Shown here one piece after another: positions 7,860 through 22,790 of a stretch of DNA of 64,000 bases. Both the position numbers and the translations under genes were made by a program. The first letter of the stretch is position 1, and each line of letters opens with the position of its first letter. This stretch comes from Pseudomonadota bacterium (GTDB lineage Bacteria; Pseudomonadota; Gammaproteobacteria; Burkholderiales; Burkholderiaceae_F), in the NCBI GenBank assembly GCA_023443095.1, contig JAEZVV010000071.1, positions 10,525 through 74,524 on the forward strand, in the 5' to 3' direction. Below the pieces are notes generated by a model. That model worked only from the letters and a program-made list of their open reading frames with translations, was not told the origin of the DNA and made no database searches.

Positions 7860-9272
7860 TCAGTCGAACTCGCCCGCCTCGATGAGGTCGCAGAGCGTGG
7901 GGATGTGGGCGCCAAGCCAGCGGACTTCGACCACTTCCTCGTACCGCTCCCGTGTGGGCCGGCGGATGGTCTTGATGGCTGAGGGGGCAAAGAAGTCCAT
8001 GGTTGCCTCGGCGGGCTCCGATGGAGAGGATGGAGTCTTGACGCGCTTGCGGACCATGACGCGCTCCTCGATCTTGGCGAGATTATGGTACAGCAGCCGC
8101 GCCCGCAGAATGCGGAAGCTCTGGCCTCGGGTGATCCGATTGGAGTCCTTGATAAAGCGATTGAGCGACTCCGTGTACCCGTTGGTGAACGGGTAGTCGA
8201 ACACCGCGAAGACGTGCTGGTGCCAGTTGTCCACGTCGCAGGCGAGGCGCCTGAACCAGTGCGCCACCCGAGGGTCCAGCGTCCGCTTCCACGTCTCGAA
8301 CTCCCTCTCGGCGGCCGCGCGGCTGGGGGCATCGTAGATGTCGAAGAACGCCTCCTTGGCCGCCTGTGCGACGCCGAGCAACGGGTACTTGGTTCGCAGC
8401 CTGTCGAGAACCGCCAGTTCGCTCGGATCGAGCTTGGCTTCGCGCTTGAGCAGCAGGTGGCGCTCATCCTTGAGCGACAGGCGCTCCGTCCGCGCCTCCT
8501 TGCCCTTCAGTTCGGTCTTCCGAATGTGCTTGCGGAGCGTTTCCACGGCCTCGACCGCCATGCGCATGACGTGGAACTTGTCGGCGACGACCGGAGCGTG
8601 CGGGAAGTAGGTCGCGGCCATCTGGCGGTAGGCATTCCAGAGGTCGGTCACGACGACCTCCACCTTGTGCTTGTCCGCCATCGCCGTGAAGTAGGCGTCC
8701 AGATGCTTCTTAGTGCGGCCCGGCAACAGCTCAACGAAGGTATTGGCTTCGACGTTCGTGATCACGCCGAGGTAGCCCTTCCCGATCTTGACCTCGTCGA
8801 TCCCGAGCACGCGCGGCGTCGTAGGCATGTGCTGTGCTTCCAGCACGTGGATGCGCTCATCGACGATGTTTCGCACCGTGCGGGGATCAATCCCGGTCTG
8901 CCGGGAGACTTCCTCGAAGGTGAGGCGCAGACCGTGCTTCTCGACGAACTCGACGAGCCGCTTGGTCGCCAACCGGTCCTCGTGAATGTCCTCTAGCCGC
9001 TCGTGAAAGGTCTTGCCGCACTTGACACACAGATACCGGTGGCGCGTCAGAACGAGCTTGAGCGGCTTGCCGAACGTTGGGGTGTCGGCCACTTCCTGCT
9101 GTGAGGTGCCGTGCCCGACAAAGGCGCTGGCGCCGCAGTGGCGGCAGGCCGAAGGCGGTGCGCTCGCCTTGACGCGGACCAGCGAGTACGGGGCGTCCGG
9201 CGCCGATCCCATCTCCATGAAGCTCAGCGAGGGCAGACCGAGCAGGTCGCGCCCTCCGAAACTGTCTGCCAT
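7860..9272 (-). CDS. ISL3 family transposase
   Basis: 470 aa. N-terminal zf-ISL3-like CRHCGAS...HG. DDE_Tnp_ISL3-like core (LGIDEVKIGKG, VVTDLWNAYR, VADKFHVMRM, NGYTESLNRFIK). GGAGGG SD before ATG 9272. Confidence 0.9.
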   Translation of the reverse strand: MADSFGGRDLLGLPSLSFMEMGSAPDAPYSLVRVKASAPPSACRHCGASAFVGHGTSQQEVADTPTFGKPLKLVLTRHRYLCVKCGKTFHERLEDIHEDRLATKRLVEFVEKHGLRLTFEEVSRQTGIDPRTVRNIVDERIHVLEAQHMPTTPRVLGIDEVKIGKGYLGVITNVEANTFVELLPGRTKKHLDAYFTAMADKHKVEVVVTDLWNAYRQMAATYFPHAPVVADKFHVMRMAVEAVETLRKHIRKTELKGKEARTERLSLKDERHLLLKREAKLDPSELAVLDRLRTKYPLLGVAQAAKEAFFDIYDAPSRAAAEREFETWKRTLDPRVAHWFRRLACDVDNWHQHVFAVFDYPFTNGYTESLNRFIKDSNRITRGQSFRILRARLLYHNLAKIEERVMVRKRVKTPSSPSEPAEATMDFFAPSAIKTIRRPTRERYEEVVEVRWLGAHIPTLCDLIEAGEFD

Positions 9273-9401
9273 CGCTCACCCTCCGGCATCGAGCCACGCC
9301 CCCTTGGTCTGCCTGCGGTCGCGCTGTTATGCTGTGACTGATTGAATGCAAACCGTACGCAACTGGTAGGCGTTTTGCTTCATACTATCACCGGAGCGAA
9401 C

Positions 9402-9590
9402 ATGGCGAAAGAGTCGTCCGTCACCGTCACGCTGCGCGTGCCGGAGAGCATCAGAGAGTTGTTGCGCGCGGCTGCCGAGAAAGACCACCGCAGCATGGCC
9501 AACATGGTGGAGGTGCTGATCCTGCGGCACTGCGAGTCCAATGGAATTTCGGTCGCGCGGAAACGAACAGTGCGGGCGACAAAGGAATAG
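9402..9590 (+). CDS. ribbon-helix-helix (CopG/Arc/MetJ-like) DNA-binding protein
   Basis: 62 aa. VTVTLRVPESIRELLRAAAEKDHRSMANMVEVLI fits a beta-strand plus two helices. GGAG lies 6 nt before ATG 9402. It is the first gene of the plus-strand cargo. Confidence 0.65.
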   Translation: MAKESSVTVTLRVPESIRELLRAAAEKDHRSMANMVEVLILRHCESNGISVARKRTVRATKE

Positions 9591-9642
9591 CGGCCGAGGC
9601 TCATCGGGTGAGCTTTAGACAATCCAAACTAACCAAGAACCA

Positions 9643-11367
9643 ATGCTTCCCCGTGAAAAGGCCAAATTTCCTGCTCTTCTGCGAGCGTTGCAGGGGGTCG
9701 TCCGCGCAGGGAAAACGCCAGAGCGTGTAGTCGCGGCCGTACTCAATGCAGTGTTGGATGAGCGTTACCCGCTGTTGGTTCGGTTGACTAGCAGCAAAGC
9801 TGTTCAGTCGCACCCGGCGGTGGCGAATTTTGTGCGCTGGCTTGTGCCCATGAATGTTGCCGAGATCGGTTTTTGGGTGAGTTCCGCGTACGCGCAGTTG
9901 GTTCTGCCCGAGTTTCGGCGGAAGCGGGCCATGTTCTTTACACCACCGATGATGGGCGAACGACTCCTCGACCAGATGGAGCGGGCTGGCGTGAACTGGG
10001 GAGCGGCACGCGTGATCGACATTGCCTGCGGTGGCGCCGCCTTCTTGGCGCCTGCGGGGTTGCGCATGGCGCAGCGGGTCGCGGCGACCGGCGCCACTGC
10101 CAATCAGGTGCTGGTCCATGTTGAGAGCCACCTGCACGGGATCGAGATCGAGCGCTTTCTCGCGAAGCTGTCGGTCACCTTTGTCGGCATGGCGCTCTAC
10201 CCGTGGATCGTCGCAGCAGGCCGGTTGCCGAAGCTCAGGGTCATCGTTGGGAACGCTATGGGGCGCCCTGCCATCCTGTCGGAGCGCTTTGATGCCGTGA
10301 TCTGCAATCCGCCTTACCGCAAGCTCACGAGTGAGGAAGCCGCCGAGCTTCCGGCCAAGCTCCAGCGGTTGGTCTACTTTCAACCGAACCTGTACAACAT
10401 GTTCATGGCCCGGTCGCTGAACCTGCTTTCTCCGATGGGTGTCGCTGGCCTGCTGACACCGATGAGCTTCCTTTCGGGGCGTTCATTTGTCCCACTGCGG
10501 CAGCATCTTGCGACCCAGCGGCGAGTAGCGAGCATCGACATCGTTGAACAGCGGCTCGGAGTCTTCCTGGGTGTGCAGCAGGACACGGCAATCAGCACCT
10601 TTGCCCCTCTTCTAAATCGCCCGACGCGGACCAAGGTGTTTGCCGCGAGTAGCGACCAGCGGTGGCACTCCGCCGGCAAGGTCGTCCTGCAGGCCACTGG
10701 CGCGCCGTGGGTGCTCCCCCGCAATGCGGACGACGCTACGCTTATCGCTCACAGCAACGGGCAGCGTCTCGCCGACTACGGCTACGAGCCCTGCATCGGC
10801 GACGTAGTCCCGCTCCGAGAGACGCGAGCCTTGTATGCAAGCCACGCTGAAGCCAAAGCGGCCGGAGTCAAGCATGCGGTGCCAATGCTGCGTGCCGCCG
10901 AGATTCGCTCCGACGGTAGCCTCGCATTCCCACGCGCAGGGCGCTCAGACTGCTTCCTTGACGCCAGCAGCAATGCTCAGGGGGTAATTCGGCTTCCGTG
11001 CGTGGCGCTTCATCGTGTCAGTTCGACGGACCAACGGCGGCGATTCGTGGCGGCCCCCGTGCCCATTGAGTTGCAGCAAACTCATGACGGAGTGATCGGA
11101 GAGAATCACGTCATCTTTCTGACCGCCACACGGCCGGATGCGCTTGCGCCGGACCTCTTGGTGCGCATCCTTGGCTCTGAGCCTGTGGATCGGATGTTCC
11201 GCTGTCGCTCTGGATCGGCCAACGTGTCCACCTACGAGCTGTCGCACCTGCCCATGCCTGATGCCTCGCTAGTGGAGCAGGCGCTGGCAGCCGGAGCCGA
11301 CATTGATACGGCGGTGCTCCGAGGTTACGGCATCGACTCGACCAATCATCAAGGCGCGCCACTATGA
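9643..11367 (+). CDS. N6-adenine DNA methyltransferase (gamma class, Eco57I/N6_Mtase-like), DrmMI-like
   Basis: Motif I VIDIACGGAAF and motif IV VICNPPY. About 250 aa of C-terminal region is a putative target-recognition domain. The stop overlaps the next start (ATGA). Confidence 0.85.
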   Translation: MLPREKAKFPALLRALQGVVRAGKTPERVVAAVLNAVLDERYPLLVRLTSSKAVQSHPAVANFVRWLVPMNVAEIGFWVSSAYAQLVLPEFRRKRAMFFTPPMMGERLLDQMERAGVNWGAARVIDIACGGAAFLAPAGLRMAQRVAATGATANQVLVHVESHLHGIEIERFLAKLSVTFVGMALYPWIVAAGRLPKLRVIVGNAMGRPAILSERFDAVICNPPYRKLTSEEAAELPAKLQRLVYFQPNLYNMFMARSLNLLSPMGVAGLLTPMSFLSGRSFVPLRQHLATQRRVASIDIVEQRLGVFLGVQQDTAISTFAPLLNRPTRTKVFAASSDQRWHSAGKVVLQATGAPWVLPRNADDATLIAHSNGQRLADYGYEPCIGDVVPLRETRALYASHAEAKAAGVKHAVPMLRAAEIRSDGSLAFPRAGRSDCFLDASSNAQGVIRLPCVALHRVSSTDQRRRFVAAPVPIELQQTHDGVIGENHVIFLTATRPDALAPDLLVRILGSEPVDRMFRCRSGSANVSTYELSHLPMPDASLVEQALAAGADIDTAVLRGYGIDSTNHQGAPL

Positions 11368-14195
11368 ACGCGTGGCAGAACGGCCGAGGTGGGCGTGACA
11401 ATCTGCCGCGTCGGCTGAAAGACCGCGAGGCTGCATTGAAGCGTCAGAGGGAACTGGCCTCACGCTCTGGTGTGCGACGCAAGGTGCCGCCGGACATGCC
11501 AGCAGATGTTGCCAAAACATCTGCGGTCGAGGCGCCGGCACCAAACCAAGCGCCCGAAGTCATGCTGGCGGGACAGCCGATTCTGTCGCTGCTGACCGAG
11601 GGCAAAGGCAAGCCGTTACCACAGCATTTGACGGCGGCCCTGACCGAAGCGGTCGATGCCTATTTGCGTGCTGCCCAATCCGGTACGCGCGAGCTGCTGC
11701 TTCTGTGGCCGGGATCGCTTACTTGTCTGCCCCTTATTCACTCCATTGCCACCCTCGAACGGTGGGCCAATGGCTACAAGCTAGGTTTCCGGGCCGCGCT
11801 CTACCCGGCCACCAAGGCTTCGTTCCGGGAGCTCAACCACCTGTTCGTAGATCGCGACGAAATCGACGCCATGCACGTGGACGTGCAGTCTGTGAGCAAC
11901 CCGCCGGGCGCTCTGTCCAAAGAGCGTTGCGACGAGAAGGACCTCATGTTCTACGCCCTCAACAGCATGCGGGCGGAAGCAGTGACGGAGGGTCTGCAGC
12001 CGTGCCTCAACGAACTGCTGCCGCACTTTGACATCGTGACCGGCGAGTGGACTGAAATTGCAAAGCTCAACTATGGCCGCCACTACCTTGACCACCTCTC
12101 GAAAAAGCTGAAGCGACTCGCCTACAAGCGTGACCTGCGAGAGCGTGTGCTGCCCGTGCTAGGGCAGGCTCAGACGGTGCCTGACGCCATCTTTGGGCTG
12201 TCGCACAAGATGAATAAGCGTCAGATCGAGGACGCTCTCAAAAACCTGAAAAGGTTGGGCTCGCTGAATGTCATCCTGCTTGATGCGACCCGGTCGTCGT
12301 TCGCTCGCACCGAGAAGCTGATGCGCCGAATCGGCGCCGTGCTTGCGTTGATTGACGAGGTGTTTGGCGCCAAGGGACCAGGTGTGCTGATCTTTACAAA
12401 CGACGCTCGGCAAATGTTGATGCTGCGTGCAGCGCTGAATCGTGAAGAGGCGCGCCACAACTTTCGCATTGGTCCGACGCGGGGCCTGTGCCAGCGTGAT
12501 AACAACCTCGGCTTGCAGCCGCAGCCCTATCAGCCTCCGGTTGCCCCAGCACCGAGTGTCATTAGCGTCGAGATCACCGACCGGGAATCGGCGAGGCTCC
12601 TAAACCAAGCCTTTCGAATGGGGCGCGATCTCGCAAGCTTCGAGCCGGCGGCCGCCGCGTTGCAGTCTGCCGCGAAGCACCTGCAGACAATGGTCAATCT
12701 GCCAGCCTCGGCCGGGGTGTTGCACGGCTGGCTCAACGAGACGCATGCCGACAGCGAACAGAGGCGACATTTCGACTGGATCGACTATCGTGCCCGGCTA
12801 CGGAACGCCGCAAAGGAAGTGCCCATTGAATTGGCGGCCCGCCTTGCCGAGTGGGCCGATGTCGCCGACAAGCTTCTACGCGCTCACGAGGACGGCACTC
12901 CACTCGCGCGAGCATTGGTGTCACGCATCAAGCTCCGCGCCGGGAACGACGCTCGGGTGCTGGTGCTGACAGTCAACCCGTTCTACGCCAAGCTTGCTTC
13001 CCAGTTCTTCCACGCCGACCCGGCCAACGAACCGCTGCGAGACCGAGTCCGCTTTATCGGCGTTACCCACCTCCGGCCGCAAGTGGAGACAGGGTGGGCC
13101 ACGCACGTTGTCGCCTGTGCGCTGTCGCCCGAGCTGCTGCGGTGGACGGTCACCACACCAACCCTACCGGGTCCGCTGGACTTTCTCCTTACCCAACAGA
13201 GCGCGGTCAGCGCGAACTATGCGCTAGAACCGGTACTTCAGCACCCGAGCTTCGCCCCGTACTTCGAGCGTGTGCGGGCGATTTGCGGCCCCATCGCAGC
13301 CGTGCGGGGCCTGCTGACCGGTATCCCGCCCGGTCACGACTACGAGCCGCCACTCATCACCCTGCCGCCGAAAGGCTCCGATGGAGAAGGGAGCAGCGGG
13401 AGTGACGACGGCGAGCGCTGGCCGACCGACTACGTGGACATCGTGCTCGACGATGGTCGCCACATCCAGCGCGGGCGCGGCGCGCGGGTCTATGTCTACG
13501 ACCCGTCCGCCCGGGACAGTCGCACCATGGGCTTCCGCGCGGCACACGCTGAGGAGTTGCGCCCGGGCTGGCTACTTTTCGTCATGTCGGACGAGTTGCG
13601 CGATGCGGCGGAAGCGACCTTTGCGCTAGCAGGCATTACCTTCGCCGAAGCAAACCGCTACGAACAGATACTGCGGCTCTACCACGCGCAAGTGCGCCTC
13701 GCGGTGCAGGCCCGATTCCCCGGCTGCAACGTCGCTGACGCTGCGCGCGGCATTCACGGCGCCATGATCGCGCTCGATCCGAAGGCGAAGACAGTTTCGG
13801 CCACAAACATTCGGTACTGGATCAACCTGAAGCGGGCCGAGGACACGCCTTACGTTGATTTGATGCCACAGGCACCACGGCATCAGGAGACCTTTAGGCT
13901 GTTCATGATGGCGCTGGGTTTCGACGCAAAGGACATCAACAACTTCTGGCAGGGCGCAGTGCGCCCGGTACGCGGTAGCCGCATCTCCGATGGGCAGAAC
14001 CTGATCGACCACTACGCTCGGGTGTTGTTCGATCCGGAAGCGGCGGCTGCATACGACCGCCTCACCCCAGCCATGCTGGACAGCCTGCGCGCCAACGTGC
14101 TGCACAACGTCGCCGAGGTGGTCGAGGCGCGCCTTGTAGTTGTCGCGCCTCCTACGGAAGACGACGAGCCAAAAATCGCTGCGAATTTCGCCTGA
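11364..14195 (+). CDS. 943-aa DISARM-associated protein of unknown function (occupies the DrmD/DrmE position)
   Basis: Long ORF translationally coupled to the MTase gene. No Walker A, DEAH, HKD or nuclease motif was seen. It has only faint helicase-like segments (LLLLWPGSL, VILLDATRSSF, VLIFTNDARQML). Confidence 0.8.
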   Translation: MNAWQNGRGGRDNLPRRLKDREAALKRQRELASRSGVRRKVPPDMPADVAKTSAVEAPAPNQAPEVMLAGQPILSLLTEGKGKPLPQHLTAALTEAVDAYLRAAQSGTRELLLLWPGSLTCLPLIHSIATLERWANGYKLGFRAALYPATKASFRELNHLFVDRDEIDAMHVDVQSVSNPPGALSKERCDEKDLMFYALNSMRAEAVTEGLQPCLNELLPHFDIVTGEWTEIAKLNYGRHYLDHLSKKLKRLAYKRDLRERVLPVLGQAQTVPDAIFGLSHKMNKRQIEDALKNLKRLGSLNVILLDATRSSFARTEKLMRRIGAVLALIDEVFGAKGPGVLIFTNDARQMLMLRAALNREEARHNFRIGPTRGLCQRDNNLGLQPQPYQPPVAPAPSVISVEITDRESARLLNQAFRMGRDLASFEPAAAALQSAAKHLQTMVNLPASAGVLHGWLNETHADSEQRRHFDWIDYRARLRNAAKEVPIELAARLAEWADVADKLLRAHEDGTPLARALVSRIKLRAGNDARVLVLTVNPFYAKLASQFFHADPANEPLRDRVRFIGVTHLRPQVETGWATHVVACALSPELLRWTVTTPTLPGPLDFLLTQQSAVSANYALEPVLQHPSFAPYFERVRAICGPIAAVRGLLTGIPPGHDYEPPLITLPPKGSDGEGSSGSDDGERWPTDYVDIVLDDGRHIQRGRGARVYVYDPSARDSRTMGFRAAHAEELRPGWLLFVMSDELRDAAEATFALAGITFAEANRYEQILRLYHAQVRLAVQARFPGCNVADAARGIHGAMIALDPKAKTVSATNIRYWINLKRAEDTPYVDLMPQAPRHQETFRLFMMALGFDAKDINNFWQGAVRPVRGSRISDGQNLIDHYARVLFDPEAAAAYDRLTPAMLDSLRANVLHNVAEVVEARLVVVAPPTEDDEPKIAANFA

Positions 14196-14231
14196 AACGG
14201 CGCTCTACTTCAACCGATCCTCCCGCGCGCT

Positions 14232-17200
14232 ATGCCAACTGTTCGTAGCAACCCCGACGCCATCGCCACGTCGCTCAAGGAGGCGGTCGCCGACGCCCTT
14301 GGCAACATCGTCTTCGGTCACAGTTCCGGTAGCGGCGAATTCGGGGTCGCTGTCTACGGCGCACAGCCAAGCCGGCTGTTTGTCTCCGGCTTCCTCTTGC
14401 CCCAACGGGAGACTGACGACGGCGACGAGGTAACGAGCCCGATCTGGATTTCCTCGCACGGCCTCGACCTGCAGGTTGCCGCCCACGGCACAGGGACGAT
14501 CACGCTGCAGCCGCGCTTCGCCGTATACCTGCGGGTGTTTCCAACGGCTGCCGACCTGCTGCGTCCGGACTGCGCACTTCGCTTACCGCAGCTCAATGCG
14601 GCCGTGCGAGGGCAGTTGGCTGCGGTCTATCGAACTGCCTTAGCCGCGCGCTGGGCGACGCTGCAGAGCAAGTACGCAACGCGCAGCAAGTGCCCGCAGT
14701 GGAAAGACATCCAAGCCGAGGAATACGCAAAGGCGTGCAAGCAACTGGGCGTGCCTGATTGCGACTGGATGCAGCCGCAGGCGCTGGAGGCGCAGGCGGC
14801 ACCGCCGCCGGAGAACAATGCCGAAAATGAAGGCGGCGCGCAGGAGATGGCTGCTGCTGGCGGGGCGAAGAGCTTCGAATTCGATGCGGCCAGTGACGCC
14901 CTCTTCGAAGTGGTCGAACCTCCGCCCAAGTGGCTCCGCCTAGAAATGGAGCCGCCGCCTCTAACGCTCGATCCGTATGCAGCGCCGGATGTGCGTGCCG
15001 CCGCCATCGAGGCGAACGAGGCGGCAATGGAACAGTACGTGCAGCATCGCATCGCGGCGTGGCTCGCCGACACCGATCCGATCACAGGCGGCGCGCTGTG
15101 GGTGTTCCGCAAGGGCGAGACGGTGAAGGCGTCCGAGCGCGTCAACTGGGACGCCTACCTCGCCGCCATGCGGGCGCGCAATGCCGACCCCTACGTCCCC
15201 GAGATCAAGCCCTGCTGGGACATCGACGTGGTCGTGGACTACACCGACCCGACCCGCTTCAACCTGCACCTTGCTCTGGAGAACCACAGCACGCCGGTGG
15301 TCCGTGGCAGCGACCGGATCGAGCACGCGCTGTTCCAGACCGAAGTCGAGGTGTACCTGCCGGTCGCCACGCACCGCAGCCTCCGGCTTGACCGGGTGGA
15401 GCCGTCCTACCGCTACAACCGCTACCTCACATACCCGGCCCTAGGCTTCAACGGCAGCGTGGAGGAGTTGGCGACCGACGAAGGCTACAAGCGCCTGCGC
15501 ACGACGTGGGCGCCGCGCTTCGTGCAGCCGCGCGTGCGTCCGCTCCCATATCCGGGCGTGGTGTGCGGGCTGCGGGCGTTGGCTACGGCCCCGGACCTCT
15601 CCGGACTCTCACCGCTCGTGACCGAGTTCCAGAAGTGGATCGCGGAGCTGCCTGCTCGTATCGACCCCACGGCTGGCGCGCGGGACGCGGCCGAGGCCAA
15701 GCGCGAGCAAGAGGCGTTCGCGGCCCACATCAAGGCGTGGACGCTGGAGTCCGAGGCCATCGCCGCCGGTATTGCGATCCTCGAAGAGTCGCGCGTCCAA
15801 TGGAGTGCGCCCGGCCCGCAGGCCGATCCCAAGGGCATTCCGTACGAAGCGTGGCAAGCCATGAACGAGACCATGGCCAACCTGATGCAGCGCCAGCGAG
15901 GCGACGACAACGGCCAGTGGTACCTGTTCCAATTGGCGTTCATCCTCGCTTCGCTGCCGGCGGTGGTTACCCGGATGCCGGAGTTCCGCCACCACTACAA
16001 CCCGAAGCGCGACGACAGTGTGACGCTGCTCTACTTCAGCACCGGCGGCGGCAAGTCGGAAGCGTTCTTCGGCTTGCTCGCCTTCACCCTGTTCTTCGAC
16101 CGGCTGCGCGGCAAGACGTTTGGTGTGACCGCGCTCGTGCGCTACCCGCTCCGACTTCTGACCGTGAACCAGTCGCAGCGGATGGCGCGCATGCTGGCGC
16201 AGGCCGAGCAGGTGCGGGCGGCCCGCCACTACCCCGGTGCGCCGTTCGCCATCGGTTTCTGGGTCGGCAGCGGCAGCACACCCAACCACCACAACGACCG
16301 AGGCGTGAAGGACGTGCCGTTCGTGGACGAGGTAAAGGTTTCCGAAGCCAAGCTGATGGACGCCAACGCTCACTACGCCGCCGCGCGGAAGGCTTGGCGC
16401 AAGCTGCCGCACTGCCCGTTCTGCGGCGGAGAGACCGGCCTGCGGCGCCTGCGCGACGCCGATGGTGGCACGCTGGCCCACGTGTGCTTCAACGCCAAGT
16501 GCTTCTCCCAGCGTAACGGACTGGGCACACCGCTGCCGTTCTACATCTGCGACGAAGACATCTACGACCTCGCGCCGGCGGTGGTCTTGGGTACCGTCGA
16601 TAAGCTGGCGATGATCGGCCACAGTGCGACCACGCTGCGCCAGGTGCTTGCGATGTTTGGCGCCGCGCCGTGGCGCCACGTCACCACTGGACGCCTGCAC
16701 ATGCCGACGTTGAAGCATCTCGCTGACGGGCCCGGCGCACACGGCTACGAGGCTGTTCACCCGTGCTACGCCGGCGGGGTAAAACTCTTCCACGACCCGC
16801 AGCCGGCGCTGATCGTGCAGGACGAAGCGCACCTCTTGGACGAGTCGCTGGGTAGCTTCTCCGGTCTCTTCGAGTCGGCGCTCGACGCCGTGTTTTCTGA
16901 GCTTGCAAAGGCGCAGCGCGGGGTCATTGCGACTGACGCCCACGGCAAGCGCCGCCGGGCCAAGGTGATCGCCGCCTCGGCCACTGTGGCTGACCCTGAG
17001 CGGCAGTTGCAGCACCTTTACCAGCGCCACATTCCGGCCACACAGTTCCCGCACCCGGGCCCGGACATCTACAGCTCGTTCTACGCCGGACCGCAACCGC
17101 CGGATGAGGTGGGCCGCGCCGCGCTCCCGGCCGACCTCGTCGAACTGCGGGCGAAGACCGGCCGTTTTTACCGCGCAATCATGACTAACGGGCGGCCGCA

Positions 17201-18410
17201 CACCGCGACCTCCGTAACCGTGCTGGCGACCTTCCACTCCATTGTCACCAGTCTGCTGGGACAACTCCTCCCGGACGATCCGACCGAGCACGCGGCGGCG
17301 CGCGACCTCCTGCTGCGCCACCTGTCGCCGGCGGTGACTGAGACGTTCCTGCGGGACGCGCTGCAGGCGTCCACCGCCAGCGAACTGGCAACTCTGATCG
17401 ACCTGCACCGGGTCGCCCTTACCTACGTCACCAACAAGAAGGGCGGCGACCAGATACAAGCGGCCGAGGCGGAGGAGACGCGCAAGCGCCATGCTGCTCT
17501 GCAGTTGCCCTTCAATGGGCTGCGCGCAGAGCTGATCACCGGCTCAGTCGATCAGGGCGCGATCAACAACACGGTCGAGGCCACACGCAACCGGCCCGAC
17601 CCAGGGCAGCCGTTCCGACCGCTCGACGGTGAGTTGCGCTCCATCGTCGCGACCTCCGCTATTTCGCACGGCGTGGACATCGAGGAACTGAACTCGATGT
17701 TCTTCGCCGGCCTCCCCTCGGACGTAGCTGAGTACATCCAAGCCTCATCTCGGATCGGCCGCAGCCACGTCGGCTTTTCGCTCCTGATCCCGACGCCGCA
17801 GCGCCGCCGCGACCGCTACGTGGTGGAGGTGTTCGACATCTTCCACCGCTTCTTGGAACGGATGGTGAAGCCGGCCGCCATCGACCGTTGGGCCGAGCGG
17901 GCAGTGTTGCGGGTCCTGCCGAGCTTCTTCCAGTCGGCGGTGTGCGGCGCCATTGCGCTGGGCGAACTGATGACCCTGCCGGACGACGAAAAGGGCAAGT
18001 GGCGGCTGTTGCAATACGTGGCGCAGGTGCTCGACCTGCACGCACAGGACAAGAAGGCGTTCGAGGACATGGTGACCGACTTCATCGAGTTGGCAATTGG
18101 CCTCACCGACAACTTCGCGCCCGACGGCAAGGAGCACTACCAGCGCATGGTGCGCGAGAACATCCGCTCGTTCTTGGACGAGATGCGCATGGGGGCCTAC
18201 AAGAACACAGCCGTCTTCAACTATTTCAACGACCAGAATGTGCTGCGTCGGCCAATGACCTCGCTGCGCGACGTGGATGAAGCCGGCACTCTGCGCCGGG
18301 GCGGCAGCGACGAGAATCCCGACGGTCGCGGCCGGTTGCACGACGCGCAGGTCATCGCCGTCATGGACTTCATCCGTTACGGCACGGCCAAGGCAGGAGA
18401 AAGCGAATGA
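14232..18410 (+). CDS. drmA: DrmA-like superfamily-2 DEAH helicase
   Basis: Walker A STGGGKSEAF, DEAH box IVQDEAHLL and motif VI SSRIGRSHVG. A CxxC...CxxxC zinc-ribbon insert lies at 16413-16502. The gene is followed by a DUF1998 gene. Confidence 0.85.
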   Translation: MPTVRSNPDAIATSLKEAVADALGNIVFGHSSGSGEFGVAVYGAQPSRLFVSGFLLPQRETDDGDEVTSPIWISSHGLDLQVAAHGTGTITLQPRFAVYLRVFPTAADLLRPDCALRLPQLNAAVRGQLAAVYRTALAARWATLQSKYATRSKCPQWKDIQAEEYAKACKQLGVPDCDWMQPQALEAQAAPPPENNAENEGGAQEMAAAGGAKSFEFDAASDALFEVVEPPPKWLRLEMEPPPLTLDPYAAPDVRAAAIEANEAAMEQYVQHRIAAWLADTDPITGGALWVFRKGETVKASERVNWDAYLAAMRARNADPYVPEIKPCWDIDVVVDYTDPTRFNLHLALENHSTPVVRGSDRIEHALFQTEVEVYLPVATHRSLRLDRVEPSYRYNRYLTYPALGFNGSVEELATDEGYKRLRTTWAPRFVQPRVRPLPYPGVVCGLRALATAPDLSGLSPLVTEFQKWIAELPARIDPTAGARDAAEAKREQEAFAAHIKAWTLESEAIAAGIAILEESRVQWSAPGPQADPKGIPYEAWQAMNETMANLMQRQRGDDNGQWYLFQLAFILASLPAVVTRMPEFRHHYNPKRDDSVTLLYFSTGGGKSEAFFGLLAFTLFFDRLRGKTFGVTALVRYPLRLLTVNQSQRMARMLAQAEQVRAARHYPGAPFAIGFWVGSGSTPNHHNDRGVKDVPFVDEVKVSEAKLMDANAHYAAARKAWRKLPHCPFCGGETGLRRLRDADGGTLAHVCFNAKCFSQRNGLGTPLPFYICDEDIYDLAPAVVLGTVDKLAMIGHSATTLRQVLAMFGAAPWRHVTTGRLHMPTLKHLADGPGAHGYEAVHPCYAGGVKLFHDPQPALIVQDEAHLLDESLGSFSGLFESALDAVFSELAKAQRGVIATDAHGKRRRAKVIAASATVADPERQLQHLYQRHIPATQFPHPGPDIYSSFYAGPQPPDEVGRAALPADLVELRAKTGRFYRAIMTNGRPHTATSVTVLATFHSIVTSLLGQLLPDDPTEHAAARDLLLRHLSPAVTETFLRDALQASTASELATLIDLHRVALTYVTNKKGGDQIQAAEAEETRKRHAALQLPFNGLRAELITGSVDQGAINNTVEATRNRPDPGQPFRPLDGELRSIVATSAISHGVDIEELNSMFFAGLPSDVAEYIQASSRIGRSHVGFSLLIPTPQRRRDRYVVEVFDIFHRFLERMVKPAAIDRWAERAVLRVLPSFFQSAVCGAIALGELMTLPDDEKGKWRLLQYVAQVLDLHAQDKKAFEDMVTDFIELAIGLTDNFAPDGKEHYQRMVRENIRSFLDEMRMGAYKNTAVFNYFNDQNVLRRPMTSLRDVDEAGTLRRGGSDENPDGRGRLHDAQVIAVMDFIRYGTAKAGESE

Positions 18411-20680
18411 GCCCCAACCCCGCGCCGATCCACGGCTTCGACGACGAGAACGAAGAGCGTCGCGAACGCACCGCCCCCACCATGAGCCGCTCATGGGGGC
18501 AGCTCGCGACGGCGTACGCCCCCGGCGCCTTCTTCACGTTCGAGGGCGGGCTGGGCGCCTGCCTCGCCCAGTCCGATGGGCAGGCCGGTCTGCAAGAGGC
18601 CAACATTTCGCCCACGGTACGCCACCAGATCGTGATGCGCTTCGAGGACGCGGTGAAGTCGTGGTTCAACGCCGCGATGCACTGCCGGCCCAACGACAGC
18701 AAAAGGCCGCCGGTGCTCGCTTCACAGTGCGTGTCGCAGTCGCTGATCAACAGCAACTACAACGGGCTGCGGCCGGTAGATGGCTCGCGCTACGTGTTCC
18801 TGTCACCCGAGCGCATGGGCTACGTCCCAGCGCCGCTAACTTTCGTCTGCAACCACTGCGGGCTCTACCGCTACTTCGGCAGTGTGCGTGACTTTGCCGC
18901 GCGCAAGGACGCGGCGCTCAACGTAAAGTGCTCGCACAGCGCCGGCAACTGCCACTGGCGTCAACTCGATGTGATCTTCGTCCACTGGTCCGGCAACTGG
19001 GAGCCAGTGCGTCCCGGTAAGTGGTACTGGGACAACAACGCAAAGGAAGTGCAGGAGCCGTTCGACCGCTGTCGGCAGTGCGGCGGCAATGAGTTCCGGC
19101 TAGAGACGCGGCACAGCGAATCGGCCATCGGTCGCTGGTACTTTGTTTGCGCCAACCCCGCGTGCAAGCATGAGGACCACGACGGTTGGGTGAAGAACGA
19201 CCACGACACGCTCGACATCGTGCGCGAGGACTTCATCCGCTTGCCGGCAGTGGCACACATGGAGCCGGTGTCCTACCGGGCGTCGGCAGCCTACTACCCG
19301 CAGGCTGATCAGTTCATCTTGTTCGCGGACCACCAAGAGGGCCTGCTGGCTTTGCTCGACCCGAGCCGCCAAAACGACCTCAAGGACTTCATCGCGCAGC
19401 GCTTCGGATTCGGCCGCGCCCGCCCGTCGATGAGCGAGATCGAAACCATCCTCAAGCAGTCAGAGAAGGGCGCAGCGTCGCTCGCCCGGTTCAGGCTCAA
19501 GGCGGAGATGCTGGGGAAGCTCCCACAGCCGCTGACGGGGCTCTACGTCGAGATGGCCGAATCGCTCAAGGACGATTTGCGCGAGATCGAAAATAGTTGG
19601 TATTCCGAGGGGTTGGTGCGCGAGAAAAACAGTCTTCCGGTGGCGCTCATCAACGGCATCGACGAGCGCAAGAACGACTTCGACGCGCGATACGATCCCT
19701 ACCGGCTGGTGGTAGAACACGAGGCGCTGAAACAGAATCACTTGGAGGCGCCCCGGGAGGCGACCGGGCGCTCGCCCTTCGTCCACTTCGACCGACTCGA
19801 CAAGGACTTGGCGCCCAAGGACGAGGCAGAGCAGGCACAGCAGGAAGCCGCGACGCGGCTGATGCTCGACAGGCTGGGGCTGGACACCATGGGCCTCATT
19901 CGCAACTTCAAGTTGTGCAAGTTCACGTACGGCTTTACACGAGTCAGCGCGACGCCCATCGTCGAGAAACACCGCATCCGAATGCCGGTACGGCTCAACC
20001 TGTTCCCGCCCGTGAAGATGGAACAGGGAGCATCGCGCACGCCAATCTACGTCATCACGCAGGAGAACGAAGCGTTCTACGTGCGACTCAACCCAGCGAT
20101 GGTGTACCAATGGCTGGGCAGTCTCAATCTCGCCGATATGTTCACGTGGGACCCAGCGGGCGAGGTGCCGCTTGGCGCCCTGCTCTTGGAGCGGGCGCAG
20201 CCGATGCAGCGTTTCCTTGCTAACGTGCATCGGGAACAGGACCCCCTCGCTTACTACTACACCTACACCCTGCTCCATACCTATTCGCACGTGATGATGC
20301 GGGCCATAGCCGAACTCTCGGGGCTCGATGCCACCTCGCTTGGCGAGTACCTGTTCCCGGCCGACCTGTCCTTCGTCATCTACCGCAGCGGCACCACGCT
20401 CGATCTAGGCAACCTGTCGTCGCTCTGGCGAAACGACAACGCCAACTTTCTGCGCCACATCGGCGAGCCGACGACGCTGGCCTGCAATTCGGGCAGCCTG
20501 TGCGCGGAGCGTGGTGGCGCCTGTCCGGACTGCATCCTGATCCCGGAGCAGTCGTGCATCGCCCAGAACCAGCTCCTCTCGCGCAGCGTGCTGCGGGGCG
20601 GTCCCCGTCCGCGCGAGGACGGGGGCACCCACCGCATTCCCGGGTACCTCGACATCGTCCATGCTGCCTTGGTCTCCTGA
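18407..20680 (+). CDS. drmB: DrmB-like DUF1998 protein
   Basis: C-terminal TLLHTYSHVMMRAI plus the Cys cluster CNSGSLCAERGGACPDCILIPEQSC (DUF1998 signature). ATGA overlap with the helicase gene. Confidence 0.85.
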   Translation: MSPNPAPIHGFDDENEERRERTAPTMSRSWGQLATAYAPGAFFTFEGGLGACLAQSDGQAGLQEANISPTVRHQIVMRFEDAVKSWFNAAMHCRPNDSKRPPVLASQCVSQSLINSNYNGLRPVDGSRYVFLSPERMGYVPAPLTFVCNHCGLYRYFGSVRDFAARKDAALNVKCSHSAGNCHWRQLDVIFVHWSGNWEPVRPGKWYWDNNAKEVQEPFDRCRQCGGNEFRLETRHSESAIGRWYFVCANPACKHEDHDGWVKNDHDTLDIVREDFIRLPAVAHMEPVSYRASAAYYPQADQFILFADHQEGLLALLDPSRQNDLKDFIAQRFGFGRARPSMSEIETILKQSEKGAASLARFRLKAEMLGKLPQPLTGLYVEMAESLKDDLREIENSWYSEGLVREKNSLPVALINGIDERKNDFDARYDPYRLVVEHEALKQNHLEAPREATGRSPFVHFDRLDKDLAPKDEAEQAQQEAATRLMLDRLGLDTMGLIRNFKLCKFTYGFTRVSATPIVEKHRIRMPVRLNLFPPVKMEQGASRTPIYVITQENEAFYVRLNPAMVYQWLGSLNLADMFTWDPAGEVPLGALLLERAQPMQRFLANVHREQDPLAYYYTYTLLHTYSHVMMRAIAELSGLDATSLGEYLFPADLSFVIYRSGTTLDLGNLSSLWRNDNANFLRHIGEPTTLACNSGSLCAERGGACPDCILIPEQSCIAQNQLLSRSVLRGGPRPREDGGTHRIPGYLDIVHAALVS

Positions 20681-21518
20681 GCTGCGGCAGGCGTTCCTAC
20701 GGCTTGCCCCGCAGGCGGCTGTTTCCGGCGCGCTTTGCCGGGCTGCGGCCGACGAGCGCTTCAGCGGGACACTCCGGCTGCGCGACATCTGTACCGCTTC
20801 CGGCCTGGCAGAATCTCGTAGCAAGACCGTCGAGCAGGTACTCTCGGCGGGTGCGGACCTCGGGCTCTTCGTCCGTCGTAGCGATGTCGAATGGTCTTCA
20901 GGCGCTGATCCACGTTTTTTCGCCATGCTGGCGACGGCATTGGAAGCGGCCGCTCTGTACCGCGAGCAGGTCCACGTCGATGCCAATCAGGTCGAGATCG
21001 TGCTCACGCCGCCCGGCAACCCATCCCGTCTGTGTGACTCGCTGCGCCAGCGCGGCTGGGCGGAAGCCGACTTGGAGCACACCGAACCCGTCTTGTTGCA
21101 CCTCGCCCATCAGGCGAACACGCGCTTCGTGATTCTGTCGCCGTTCATCGACTACGGCGGCGCGACCAACATGCTGGCACTTTTCCAAGCGACGCCTGTC
21201 ACTGCGCGCCGGGTGCTCATAACCCGCTGCCCCGACGGCGTGGTTCCGCCTGCGCTCCATCCGCTTCTGCCGTCGCTCACTGGGCTGAATGTCGCAGTCC
21301 ACAGCTACTGGCTGCCTCGTCCCGGCAACGGTTATGAGACATTCCACGCGAAAATTGTTTTGTCAGACGACCGAGCTGCTTACCTCGGCTCCGCCAACAT
21401 GACCCAAGCTTCGCTGTCTCTCAGCATGGAGTTGGGAACCTTCCTTCGGGGCTCGGGTGTCACGACGTTGATGAGCGTCATTGATGCAATCTTGACCGTA
21501 GCGCCGAAGATCAACTAA
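20661..21518 (+). CDS. drmC: DrmC-like phospholipase D family nuclease
   Basis: Single HKD motif FHAKIVLSDDRAAYLGSANMT. 20-nt overlap with the preceding gene. Confidence 0.85.
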   Translation: MLPWSPELRQAFLRLAPQAAVSGALCRAAADERFSGTLRLRDICTASGLAESRSKTVEQVLSAGADLGLFVRRSDVEWSSGADPRFFAMLATALEAAALYREQVHVDANQVEIVLTPPGNPSRLCDSLRQRGWAEADLEHTEPVLLHLAHQANTRFVILSPFIDYGGATNMLALFQATPVTARRVLITRCPDGVVPPALHPLLPSLTGLNVAVHSYWLPRPGNGYETFHAKIVLSDDRAAYLGSANMTQASLSLSMELGTFLRGSGVTTLMSVIDAILTVAPKIN

Positions 21519-21605
21519 GTCACCCCGCCAACAGACGACGGTGAGGTCGTTCTTGGGGGCCGCTGCATCAGCGATGGCTAGGTAAATTGGGCGACGCCGT
21601 CCCGA

Positions 21606-21747
21606 GGCCACCCACGCCGTTTTCCGTTTCGGGGGTGCGGCCACCAACATCCTGACTCACCGCGCCACCCACGCTGGATTCCGTTTTGGCGTTGCGGCCT
21701 CCCGGTGCCCCTGATACCCCGGCACCCACGCTCCTTTCCGGAAACCC
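21606..21747 (+). repeat. three direct copies, 57 bp apart, of a CACCCACGC-N4-6-TTCCG unit; the third copy is the terminal IR
   Basis: CCCAC cores at 21611, 21668 and 21725. Copies 1 and 2 share about 32 of 39 positions (GCCACCCACGC..TTCCGTTT.GG.GTGCGGCC.CC). Confidence 0.6.
21725..21747 (-). repeat. terminal inverted repeat, cargo-distal end (reverse complement GGGTTTCCGGAAAGGAGCGTGGG)
   Basis: Pairs with 7822-7844 and is followed directly by T8 (21748-21755). Confidence 0.55.
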
Positions 21748-21815
21748 TTTTTTTTAGGCCTAGCCCAGGCCCGCCAGGGTTCGTTCACCAGCGAGGCGTT
21801 GTTTCAGGCCCCGCA

Positions 21816-22049
21816 TCAACGGCGCTTGTCGTTGCGGATCAGGGTCTGCTTGAAGCGGTTCTGGCGCGCCTGGTCGTATTCGTCGTGCGCGCGTTTCTTG
21901 TCGAGGCCCAGTCGGCGTTCGAAAAACTCGAACCAGACCAGGGCCAGCGCGAGCGGCGCCACGATCCACCACCATGAGAGTTCGCCGACATAACTGACGT
22001 TGAGCAGTTTCAGCACGATCAGGGCAAGGCCGAGCCAGACGAGATACAT
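21816..22049 (-). CDS. small Trp-rich membrane protein (TIGR04438-like)
   Basis: MYLVWLGLALIVLKLL...ELSWWWIVAPLALALVWFEFFE followed by a basic tail. Start taken at the internal ATG 22049. Confidence 0.65.
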   Translation of the reverse strand: MYLVWLGLALIVLKLLNVSYVGELSWWWIVAPLALALVWFEFFERRLGLDKKRAHDEYDQARQNRFKQTLIRNDKRR

Positions 22050-22216
22050 GGTGCGAGCGCGCGAGGACTGAGTGATACGAGTCACTATAACCGCGCCGGA
22101 CAAGAATCCGGCAAGCGCCGCGACCGGGCTTGTGCACCGATATGCGGGATCCTCCGTTAGTATCTGCAGTCATCGGGCTTCCCCTCCCTTTGCCCGACCT
22201 CTTACATGGAGTCTGT

Positions 22217-22528
22217 ATGAAAATCACCGCAGCCCTTGCCACCGTTGGCCTGCTCGCCATCGGCAACACTGCCCTGGCCCAGAGCGCCCCGGACCTCGCC
22301 AAGCAGAAGAACTGCTTTGCCTGCCACGCCGTCGACAAGAAGCTGGTGGGCCCGTCCTACAAGGACGTCGCCGCCAAATACAAGGGCAACAAGGACGCCG
22401 TGACCATCCTCGCGAAGAAGATCCGCGAAGGTGGCGTCGGCACCTGGGGCCAGGTCCCGATGCCCGCCAACCCCCAAGTCAACGCCGCCGAGGCCGACAC
22501 CCTGGCCAAGTGGGTGATCGCCCAGTAA
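22217..22528 (+). CDS. class I cytochrome c (c551/c552-like), periplasmic
   Basis: Signal peptide, CFACH haem-binding motif and distal PMP Met. GGAG before ATG 22217. Confidence 0.9.
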   Translation: MKITAALATVGLLAIGNTALAQSAPDLAKQKNCFACHAVDKKLVGPSYKDVAAKYKGNKDAVTILAKKIREGGVGTWGQVPMPANPQVNAAEADTLAKWVIAQ

Positions 22529-22566
22529 GTCCGACGCCAGGCCTGCCGGTTCGCCGGCAAAGAAAA

Positions 22567-22587
22567 GGGCGCTGCGGCGCCCTTTTT
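22567..22587 (+). terminator. rho-independent terminator after the cytochrome c gene
   Basis: GGGCGC-TGCG-GCGCCC followed by TTTTT. Confidence 0.6.
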
Positions 22588-22790
22588 GTCGCACCTAGCC
22601 AGGGCCGGCACGAATCGAACCCGGCCTCGAACCCGAGTGTCGCGCCGGTGACGCGTTCGACCGGATTTCGAGGGCCAATTTCAATGCAGGGGTTATCCCG
22701 GGGATAGAATCGACTGGTTTCGTGTGTCCGTTGCGCGGCGCCGAACGCCATCCACCACCGTTCGATCGAGCATTTCCAGGAGAGAGCTAG

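Follow-up and report, generated by a model that had tools for sequence, protein, structure and literature searches.

Does the six-gene operon at positions 9402-21518 of a stretch of Pseudomonadota DNA belong to one of the two published classes of the DISARM defence system, or does it represent an architecture of its own? The stretch (the window) comprises 64,000 nt of contig JAEZVV010000071.1, and an initial annotation had read the gene set of the operon as DISARM of neither class. In the published scheme, type I comprises DrmA, DrmB, DrmC, DrmD and DrmMI, and type II comprises DrmA, DrmB and DrmC together with DrmE and DrmMII (PMC9252829; bioRxiv 10.1101/2021.12.28.474362). According to published experiments, class 2 cannot do without drmA, drmB or drmE, and drmC can be spared in either class (bioRxiv 10.1101/2021.12.28.474362). 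Our results argue with high confidence for a conserved DISARM subtype in its own right. Its genes run in the order gamma N6-adenine methyltransferase, a 943-amino-acid (aa) protein here called X, DrmA, DrmB and DrmC, and in the window they are preceded by a gene for a putative ribbon-helix-helix (RHH) repressor. As a whole, the locus is probably best explained as a complete, horizontally acquired cassette of this unnamed subtype, working by the mechanism proposed below.

All six open reading frames (ORFs) are on the + strand (9402-9590, 9643-11367, 11364-14195, 14232-18410, 18407-20680 and 20661-21518). ATGA overlaps are present at both 11364-11367 and 18407-18410, drmB and drmC overlap by 20 nt (20661-20680), and gaps of 52 nt and 36 nt separate the RHH gene from the methyltransferase gene and X from drmA, respectively. 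The six co-directional genes and their three overlaps are exactly as the initial annotation had described them, and every peptide motif quoted there was found in the gene named for it. For the RHH gene, the mechanical ORF begins at TTG 9342, and ATG 9402 has GGAG 6 nt upstream. The sequence is 67% GC, and spurious long ORFs are common, for example a 627-aa ORF antisense to drmA. The six genes are real rather than chance high-GC ORFs, because their order recurs elsewhere and the ratio of nonsynonymous to synonymous substitution rates (dN/dS), calculated against the closest distinct relative (L039), is 0.09-0.12 for all of them. The catalytic motifs of the methyltransferase, DrmA and DrmC are intact. 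Public sources gave no name for any of the six proteins, and an exact-sequence look-up of X from the window returned no record.

The DISARM core is carried by three of these genes. DrmA (14232-18410, 1392 aa) is a YprA-like superfamily 2 (SF2) helicase with STGGGKSEAF at aa 603, IVQDEAHLL at aa 861 and SSRIGR at aa 1172 (motif VI, QASSRIGR); its Walker A sequence GGGKS spans aa 605-609 (nt 16044-16058) and its DEAH box aa 864-867 (nt 16821-16832). It also carries a Cys-rich insertion (CPFC...C...C, aa 728-757) and an N-terminal region of ~450 aa that is clade-specific. DrmA matched PADLOC DrmA at 1.4e-86 and Pfam Helicase_C at 4.7e-8, and the single match of the DrmA-clade profile in the Protein Data Bank (PDB) was Serratia DrmA (7S9V_A, 1.3e-74). 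DrmB (18407-20680, 757 aa) corresponds to the split-off C-terminal module of a YprA-type helicase and ends in a four-Cys zinc cluster (aa 693-717, nt 20483-20557). It matched PADLOC DrmB at 1.9e-17, and its only real PDB match was again DrmB (7S9V_B, 4.3e-4). DrmC (20661-21518, 285 aa) is a single-HKD nuclease of the phospholipase D (PLD) family with an HxKxxxxD motif (HAKIVLSD, aa 229-236, nt 21345-21368), matching PADLOC DrmC at 3.3e-12 and Pfam PLDc_2 at 4.7e-7. The parts named in the core definition of DISARM, drmA, drmB and drmC with a methylase, are all found in the operon. The initial recognition of a DISARM core from a helicase, a DUF1998 protein, a PLD nuclease and a methyltransferase is thereby confirmed by PADLOC and by both chains, A and B, of 7S9V.

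Recognition of the core bears on whether the locus is an immune system at all. YprA-family helicases act also in repair (MrfAB; bioRxiv 10.1101/2025.09.15.676423), and an ISL3 element adjoins the cassette, both of which favour reading it as a YprA/MrfA-like module for DNA repair or replication with an orphan methylase, or as an inactive remnant beside an insertion sequence (IS). We consider this very improbable. Split DrmA and DrmB together with a PLD gene are the DISARM signature, the only PDB relatives are DrmA and DrmB themselves, and the cassette holds no MrfB-like exonuclease. Decay is opposed by the intact ORFs and catalytic motifs and by dN/dS values of ~0.1. Furthermore, the cassette moves horizontally as a unit, amid toxin-antitoxin, restriction-modification (RM), SIR2, WYL, prophage and plasmid genes.

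The methyltransferase (9643-11367, + strand) is a stand-alone protein of 574 aa. VIDIACGGAAF (aa 124) precedes VICNPPY (aa 219; NPPY at aa 222-225, nt 10306-10317), and this order of motif I before NPPY is the gamma arrangement; the C-terminal half is devoted to target recognition. A REBASE-derived PADLOC type II model (MTase_II, PDLC03338) matched it over nearly the full length at 4.5e-122, and Pfam identified Eco57I (5e-12) and N6_Mtase (2e-5). The nearest solved structure was CamA (7LNI, 4e-4). By contrast, the DrmMI model PDLC02643 gave 18 bits (9.8e-5) over ~60 residues at the catalytic motif, versus the 1668 bits that an authentic class 1 DrmMI (1484 aa) reached on it, so the enzyme is an adenine methylase but not DrmMI. 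It is the sole methylase of the cassette, in which PADLOC and Pfam detected no C5-cytosine methylase.

Between the methyltransferase and DrmA lies protein X (11364-14195, + strand), the signature gene of the subtype. X matched no model in Pfam, NCBIfam or PADLOC, 35 diverse relatives matched none either, and a search of its sequence against the PDB returned noise only. An exhaustive profile search defined a family of 296 clusters at 50% identity, nearly all of ~900 aa. A second, word-indexed homolog search with a diverse X profile added only one protein. An AlphaFold (AF2) model of X built from 99 sequences reached a pLDDT of 89.9 and a pTM of 0.83, and replaced an earlier model from 18 sequences (pLDDT 73.5). 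It predicts a RecA1-like domain (aa 76-405, nt 11589-12578), a helical insertion (aa 407-527) and a RecA2-like domain (aa 532-648), followed by a disordered linker (aa 657-686), a small beta domain (aa 690-740) and a helical domain (aa 743-936). In a Foldseek search of the PDB with this model, all 24 matches at E<=1e-3 were helicases. Both AlphaFold models gave helicases alone; over the two, the PDB matches were Hef, LGP2, RIG-I, MDA5 and Dicer-2, then ISW1, CHD1 and CSB, and one superfamily 1 helicase, UvrD. Matches in the viral library BFVD were likewise helicases.

The catalytic residues expected of such a fold were absent from X. None of 99 family members carried GK[S/T] within the N-terminal 650 aa, and none carried DExx at the expected position. 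Past the first strand, where the P-loop would sit, W115 and P116 (nt 11706-11711) are kept in 97 and 98 of the 99 members, respectively, and the place of DExx, at a strand end, is occupied by D307, followed by A or L and then T (nt 12282-12290). The dN/dS of X against its closest distinct relative was 0.106, indicating purifying selection. Since the Walker motifs are missing in all 99 members and X is under purifying selection, their loss is ancient and stable and does not reflect decay in recent times. On the predicted structure, X is an anciently ATPase-dead protein of SF2-helicase fold. The initial description of a 943-aa protein without catalytic motif thus stands as regards the Walker motifs, but the model, with its helicase fold, shows that the protein is not featureless.

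These properties allow the cassette to be compared with ordinary class 1 DISARM, in which X would be a decayed DrmD and the methyltransferase a shortened DrmMI. The methylase is indeed an adenine enzyme of the broad Eco57I/gamma family, as is DrmMI, and the SF2 fold of X, with the SNF2 remodelers ISW1, CHD1 and CSB among its matches, points in the same direction. Neither X nor any of 35 family members matched an SNF2 or DrmD profile, however, whereas a genuine DrmD, as positive control, scored 1393 bits on the DrmD model, and hhalign of the X profile against genuine DrmD gave a probability of 0.15%. Having neither the profile match nor the motifs, X was rejected as DrmD/SNF2, and the cassette has no other candidate gene for DrmD. 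The initial annotation had held that a SNF2 or helicase profile with intact Walker A and B in this protein would make the system class 1; neither was found. The gene order is methyltransferase-X rather than DrmD-DrmMI, the DrmAL score of DrmA was 216 bits against a cutoff of 999, the DrmMI score is as given above, and the absence of Walker A and B throughout a family under purifying selection does not fit a decayed motor. Ordinary class 1 is therefore extremely improbable. A separate candidate, X as a decayed duplicate of DrmA, found no support, with an hhalign probability of 0.4% between the X and DrmA-clade profiles.

Conservation of the architecture was assessed in all fetchable X loci, among them plasmids of Polaromonas naphthalenivorans (pPNAP03) and Sinorhizobium americanum (plasmid A), the Rhodocyclus purpureus genome and metagenomic contigs. 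The metagenomic set reaches the detection limit, with profile E-values of 1e-21 to 1e-36 and 14-21% identity to X of the window. In all 18 of the 18 loci with sufficient flank, DrmA came directly after X, also for members less than 20% identical to X of the window; DrmB followed DrmA in 16 of 16, and a PLD gene followed DrmB in 14 of the 16 loci extending that far. The two PLD-less loci either end at a relaxase or have decayed through an IS66 insertion. Directly upstream of X, an Eco57I-type methylase of 531-628 aa was present in 21 of 22 loci, and the survey proposed with the initial annotation thus finds the 943-aa gene conserved next to the methyltransferase. The sole methylase-less variant (L020/L021; L020 2953-15194) carries upstream a divergently transcribed HTH_11-WYL-WCX regulator, then X-DrmA-DrmB-DrmC and, downstream of DrmC, a SIR2_2/Dsr1-like gene (PADLOC Dsr1, 1.2e-56). 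This gene arrangement implies that an X-DrmABC module can exist without a cognate methylase.

The proteins of the cassette also diverged together. Pairwise-identity matrices from 14 loci were correlated at r=0.98 for X and DrmA, r=1.00 for DrmA and DrmB, and r=0.95 for the methyltransferase and X; because the matrices of the five proteins are so highly correlated, the cassette evolves as a unit. X is its fastest-evolving member, with a median pairwise identity across these loci of 22% versus 48% for DrmA. In a midpoint-rooted neighbour-joining tree, built without bootstrap support, DrmA of X-type loci formed a separate deep clade. These proteins are 44-66% identical within the clade, and 23-27% identical to DrmA of three class 1 loci, five class 2-like loci and a Bacillus cereus variant. 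That variant is a side observation: the locus annotated as drmA by PGAP on B. cereus plasmids (L007 8305-20073, many records) is non-canonical and has no PLD gene listed, its order being DrmA, a DUF1998 protein, a helicase-related protein, a DUF4391 protein, a site-specific methylase and a DEAD/DEAH helicase. In species-representative genomes, a scan for X found a single locus (Rhodocyclus), a lower bound given that the scan used short peptide patterns and missed the Polaromonas copy; the same kind of scan found no X in viral contigs, which is again a lower bound and not evidence of rarity.

The position of X brings class 2 into play, in that X might be a very divergent DrmE in a class 2-type DISARM where an adenine methylase has taken the place of the C5 enzyme DrmMII; the architecture would then not be a separate one. 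The slot of X directly upstream of drmA is the DrmE-position slot of class 2-like loci such as Lactiplantibacillus plantarum pMK02 (order DrmMII, 801-aa protein, DrmA, DrmB), and the best NCBIfam model for DrmA was DrmAS, not DrmAL. Aligned by hhalign, the X profile and the 801-aa family were colinear over 273 columns, and the DrmE-position proteins of two class 2-like loci (801 aa, L013 4832-7237 of L. plantarum pMK02; 792 aa, L012 5013-7391 of Haliscomenobacter pHALHY02) both aligned best, if weakly, to the same beta domain of X. None of these alignments was significant, however, with probabilities of 0.3-0.6% (0.6% for the 801-aa family) and E-values of 0.09-0.2. X had no PADLOC or NCBIfam DrmE match, and PADLOC DrmE models matched 0 of 35 diverse X members. 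This missing match is weak evidence, because the DrmE models failed equally on the two DrmE-position proteins, which matched no PADLOC or NCBIfam model, nor each other. Several families unrelated in sequence seem to occupy the DrmE slot. Further against class 2, X-type DrmA forms its own deep clade, only 23-24% identical to class 2-like DrmA and no closer to it than to class 1, its DrmAS score lies below the NCBIfam cutoff, and the cassette has no C5 methylase, although the DrmMII model readily found the DrmMII of L013 (2.6e-138). We therefore regard a class 2 origin as unlikely. With DrmD, DrmMI and DrmMII all absent and positive controls working (DrmC of class 1 gave 264 bits), the claim that the gene set fits neither published class holds, and we return to a distinct subtype with X as its signature.

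The RHH gene stands apart from this conserved architecture. It encodes a CopG/Arc-like protein of 62 aa (9402-9590, + strand; Pfam RHH_5 2.3e-6, Arc 1.2e-5), presumed to be a transcriptional regulator, and its dN/dS was 0.105. A copy with 76% identity is present, though uncalled, in the closest relatives (L039/L040), and tblastn at E<=10 found none in any other X-bearing locus examined. A phmmer search gave one weak match (6.8e-6), to a 68-aa ORF downstream of DrmC in Polaromonas pPNAP03. By this distribution, the RHH gene is a lineage-specific regulator outside the conserved set, as the WYL protein similarly is in another branch. The combination first proposed as characteristic, an adenine methyltransferase with a large non-SNF2 protein and an RHH gene, therefore holds for its first two members, which recur, the methylase in 21 of 22 loci; the RHH gene is present and correctly assigned to its family but is not part of the shared architecture.

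How might such a cassette work? The analysis shows gene content, homologies, fold, loss of motifs, conservation, mobility and tight coupling of the operon; defence against phages, methylation and the part played by X are inferred. From its family, the methyltransferase would mark a host motif with N6-methyladenine (m6A) as a self signal. By homology to the cryo-EM structure of Serratia DrmAB, DrmA and DrmB would form a split YprA-type helicase that loads on incoming DNA and translocates along it. X, to judge from linkage and co-divergence, would be a non-catalytic DNA-binding or adaptor partner of DrmAB, filling the niche of the SNF2 motor DrmD in class 1 and of DrmE in class 2. X is placed with DrmAB, and not as a helper of the methylase, because it is kept where there is no methylase, and because DrmA and DrmB are the proteins with which it co-diverges most closely. 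DrmC would be an accessory effector, since some loci lack it and neither of the two studied classes depends on it. Finally, the RHH protein would repress the operon, as the WYL regulator presumably does in the other branch. While a distinct subtype is well supported, the specific role of X within it is a tentative and somewhat doubtful proposal.

A bolder version of this mechanism is a real possibility that stops short of being probable. It would make the locus the type example of a third DISARM class, defined by its own DrmA clade, a short gamma methylase and a pseudo-helicase, X, of Hef/RIG-I-like SF2 fold, whose ATP site was ancestrally lost and which is an obligate non-catalytic subunit of DrmAB. 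X would then be the DNA sensor or adaptor that decides when DrmAB fires, it would be the fastest-evolving member through phage counter-defence, and the system would work even without a methylase. If so, the WYL-regulated variant would imply self/non-self discrimination independent of methylation.

Several observations weigh against the proposed subtype and mechanism. NCBIfam assigned the core proteins to the same families, but with scores far below its cutoffs: DrmA reached at best 357 bits on DrmAS (cutoff 950) and 216 bits on DrmAL, DrmB reached 39 bits on DrmB_fam (cutoff 240), and DrmC reached 48.7 bits on DrmC_I (cutoff 133). Pfam DUF1998 (PF09369) gave no match to the 757-aa DrmB even at E<=10. 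The initial DUF1998 label thus stands through the Cys cluster, the DrmB profiles and 7S9V_B, and fails at the Pfam family itself; a Sinorhizobium ortholog fragment that PGAP labels DUF1998 matched DrmB at 6.7e-55. For X, the fold matches had global TM-scores of 0.18-0.33 and identities of 7-12%. Low global scores are expected for a multi-domain protein, and because of them the helicase assignment is made at the level of the fold, from domain-level 3Di similarity. W115-P116 and D307 were assigned to the Walker positions by the order of secondary-structure elements, not by superposition, and X may have a non-canonical nucleotide site. The role suggested for X follows from gene linkage. As for the RHH repressor, a promoter scan found no sigma-70 consensus in the region upstream of its gene, and scans around the gene found no operator repeat. 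More generally, nothing convincing emerged when the surroundings of the RHH gene and the stretch downstream of drmC were scanned for promoters, terminators and operators.

The genomic setting is that of mobile cargo. The cassette lies in a GC trough (0.62-0.63 versus 0.67-0.70), with ilvD on one side and a branched-chain amino-acid ABC transporter on the other. The closest distinct copy, L039, whose X is 82% identical, occupies a different chromosomal site, and DNA homology to it (L039 536-12732) spans exactly 9358-21517, beginning just ahead of the RHH gene and reaching the stop codon of DrmC, 21517 being the last base before the end of that codon. The left end of the transferred cassette is thus marked by a leader and presumed promoter region on the + strand (9358-9401). 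Relatives occur on plasmids beside type I RM, HipA, VapBC and AbiE genes, beside SIR2 and WYL genes, beside P2-like tail genes or beside a relaxase. The cassette is therefore horizontally acquired, 12.2 kb long (9358-21517), and found in a context typical of defence cargo. Beside it, and not part of the system, lies an ISL3-family transposase gene (7860-9272, - strand; Pfam DDE_Tnp_ISL3 1.7e-50, Zn_ribbon_ISL3 and HTH_Tnp_ISL3). An ISL3 fragment (L039 74-439) also flanks the L039 copy, the IS DNA not being alignable between the two, and an ISL3 IS may have been involved in mobilising the cassette.

Further observations were made on the cassette copies and their surroundings. Relative to L039, synonymous divergence (dS) within the cassette is a mosaic: it is 0.22-0.27 for DrmA and DrmB (95-96% aa identity) and 0.76-1.59 for RHH, the methyltransferase, X and DrmC (76-84% aa identity). 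This pattern points to recombination within the cassette, or to its DrmAB segment having been exchanged more recently. On Polaromonas pPNAP03 (L005 16361-19635), the cassette is followed by the 68-aa ORF with weak similarity to the RHH protein, next by a type I methylase with an S subunit, near which no R subunit is listed, and then by a HipA/HTH toxin-antitoxin pair. Directly upstream of the Rhodocyclus purpureus cassette (L004 175-7570) are genes for a RecC_C protein of 554 aa, a UvrD/GajB-like helicase of 1230 aa and a RecD-like protein of 681 aa that matches the PADLOC candidate PDC-S68; this three-gene cluster may be a separate defence module. A distant copy (L028; 1-7400, 20401-22778) follows immediately after P2-like tail genes (Tail_P2_I, DUF4815) and is itself followed by a large AAA_22/PRTase-CE gene, and it may be prophage cargo in a defence hotspot. 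In the window, ~1.27 kb (21519-22790) separates the DrmC stop codon from the gene for the ABC-transporter binding protein. This stretch is absent from the L039 copy, and its ORFs 21705-21977, 22072-22707 and 21363-21650 (- strand) had no Pfam match. Farther away, one ORF at 39698-41542 encodes a chorismate-binding (PabB-like) domain fused to a class IV aminotransferase (ADC-lyase-like) domain, a housekeeping gene unrelated to the cassette.

Systems of this kind are easily overlooked. As the initial annotation had anticipated for rule-based finders, RefSeq names no Drm protein at the orthologous Polaromonas locus, which reads N-6 methylase, hypothetical, DEAD/DEAH helicase, hypothetical and PLD-like, in contrast to canonical loci of the same collection, which are given the names drmA, drmC and drmD. 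A Pfam-based rule would miss DrmB of the window, because PF09369 gives no match. Since the X family (~300 clusters) and its DrmA clade are invisible to annotation rules, X-type loci are under-counted in defence censuses, and a profile of X would provide a specific marker for them. Another point of annotation concerns PADLOC-DB 2.0.0, whose model PDLC02572 bears the label DrmA, probably in error: it matched a genuine SNF2-type DrmD (L042 141-3221, - strand) end to end with 1371 bits, nearly the score of the best DrmD model. Bell et al. 2025 state that many uncharacterized DISARM-like classes remain (bioRxiv 10.1101/2025.09.15.676423), and further subtypes are therefore expected by specialists. 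A search of the searchable literature found no paper naming a third DISARM class, and this subtype and its signature protein X appear undescribed there.

DISARM is among the least understood of the widespread defence systems, both in how self is distinguished from foreign DNA and in the roles of DrmD and DrmE. The X-type cassette offers a natural comparison, with the same DrmAB core and an accessory protein shaped like a helicase without ATPase. If the system protects, the accessory role is not DNA translocation and would therefore be sensing, scaffolding or regulation. The methylase-less, WYL-regulated relatives bear in turn on whether methylation is needed at all.

Among known systems, class 1 of Serratia sp. 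SCBI, with the order DrmD-DrmMI-DrmA-DrmB-DrmC, likewise has split DrmA and DrmB, a PLD-family DrmC, an Eco57I/gamma adenine methylase and, upstream of DrmA, a gene for another protein of SF2 fold. It differs in having the SNF2 motor DrmD (pfam00176), whereas X has neither Walker A nor DExx and does not resemble DrmD in sequence. Its DrmMI of ~1300-1500 aa contrasts with a methylase of 574 aa, its order DrmD-DrmMI is the reverse of that seen here, and its DrmA is 25-27% identical to the DrmA described here, which belongs to a separate clade. Class 2 of Bacillus paralicheniformis, with the order DrmE-DrmA-DrmB-DrmC-DrmMII, likewise encodes a large protein without annotated domains directly upstream of drmA, and DrmE is essential for protection there, which fits X as a core partner; its methylase is a C5-cytosine enzyme (pfam00145) rather than an adenine enzyme, and DrmA of the window is 23-24% identical to class 2-like DrmA. 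Beyond DISARM, X shares with Hef/RIG-I-like and SNF2 ATPases two RecA-like domains with a helical domain between them. Unlike X, those ATPases have no additional beta domain and no 200-aa helical C-terminal domain; X, unlike them, lacks motifs for ATP binding or hydrolysis. DISARM-like cassettes associated with McrBC (eLife RP94800, later ARMADA) or containing ShdA (PMC10270631) have other gene content, and the cassette holds no ShdA or McrBC genes. Finally, ARMADA types I and II (Bell et al. 2025) likewise combine a YprA-family helicase, an adenine methylase and a second SF2-type protein. When tested against ARMADA components, the cassette gave only weak matches to BrxH models, in the Helicase_C region of DrmA (~1e-3), and a PglX match confined to the catalytic motif of the methyltransferase (~1e-9 over ~90 aa). 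In ARMADA, the YprA helicase is unsplit and carries a fused Vsr nuclease, the other helicase is active and BrxHII/RapA-like, and the methylase is large and PglX-like. In the cassette described here, by contrast, DrmA and DrmB are split, the PLD protein is encoded by a gene of its own, the methylase is short, and X, a helicase-like protein, appears catalytically dead.

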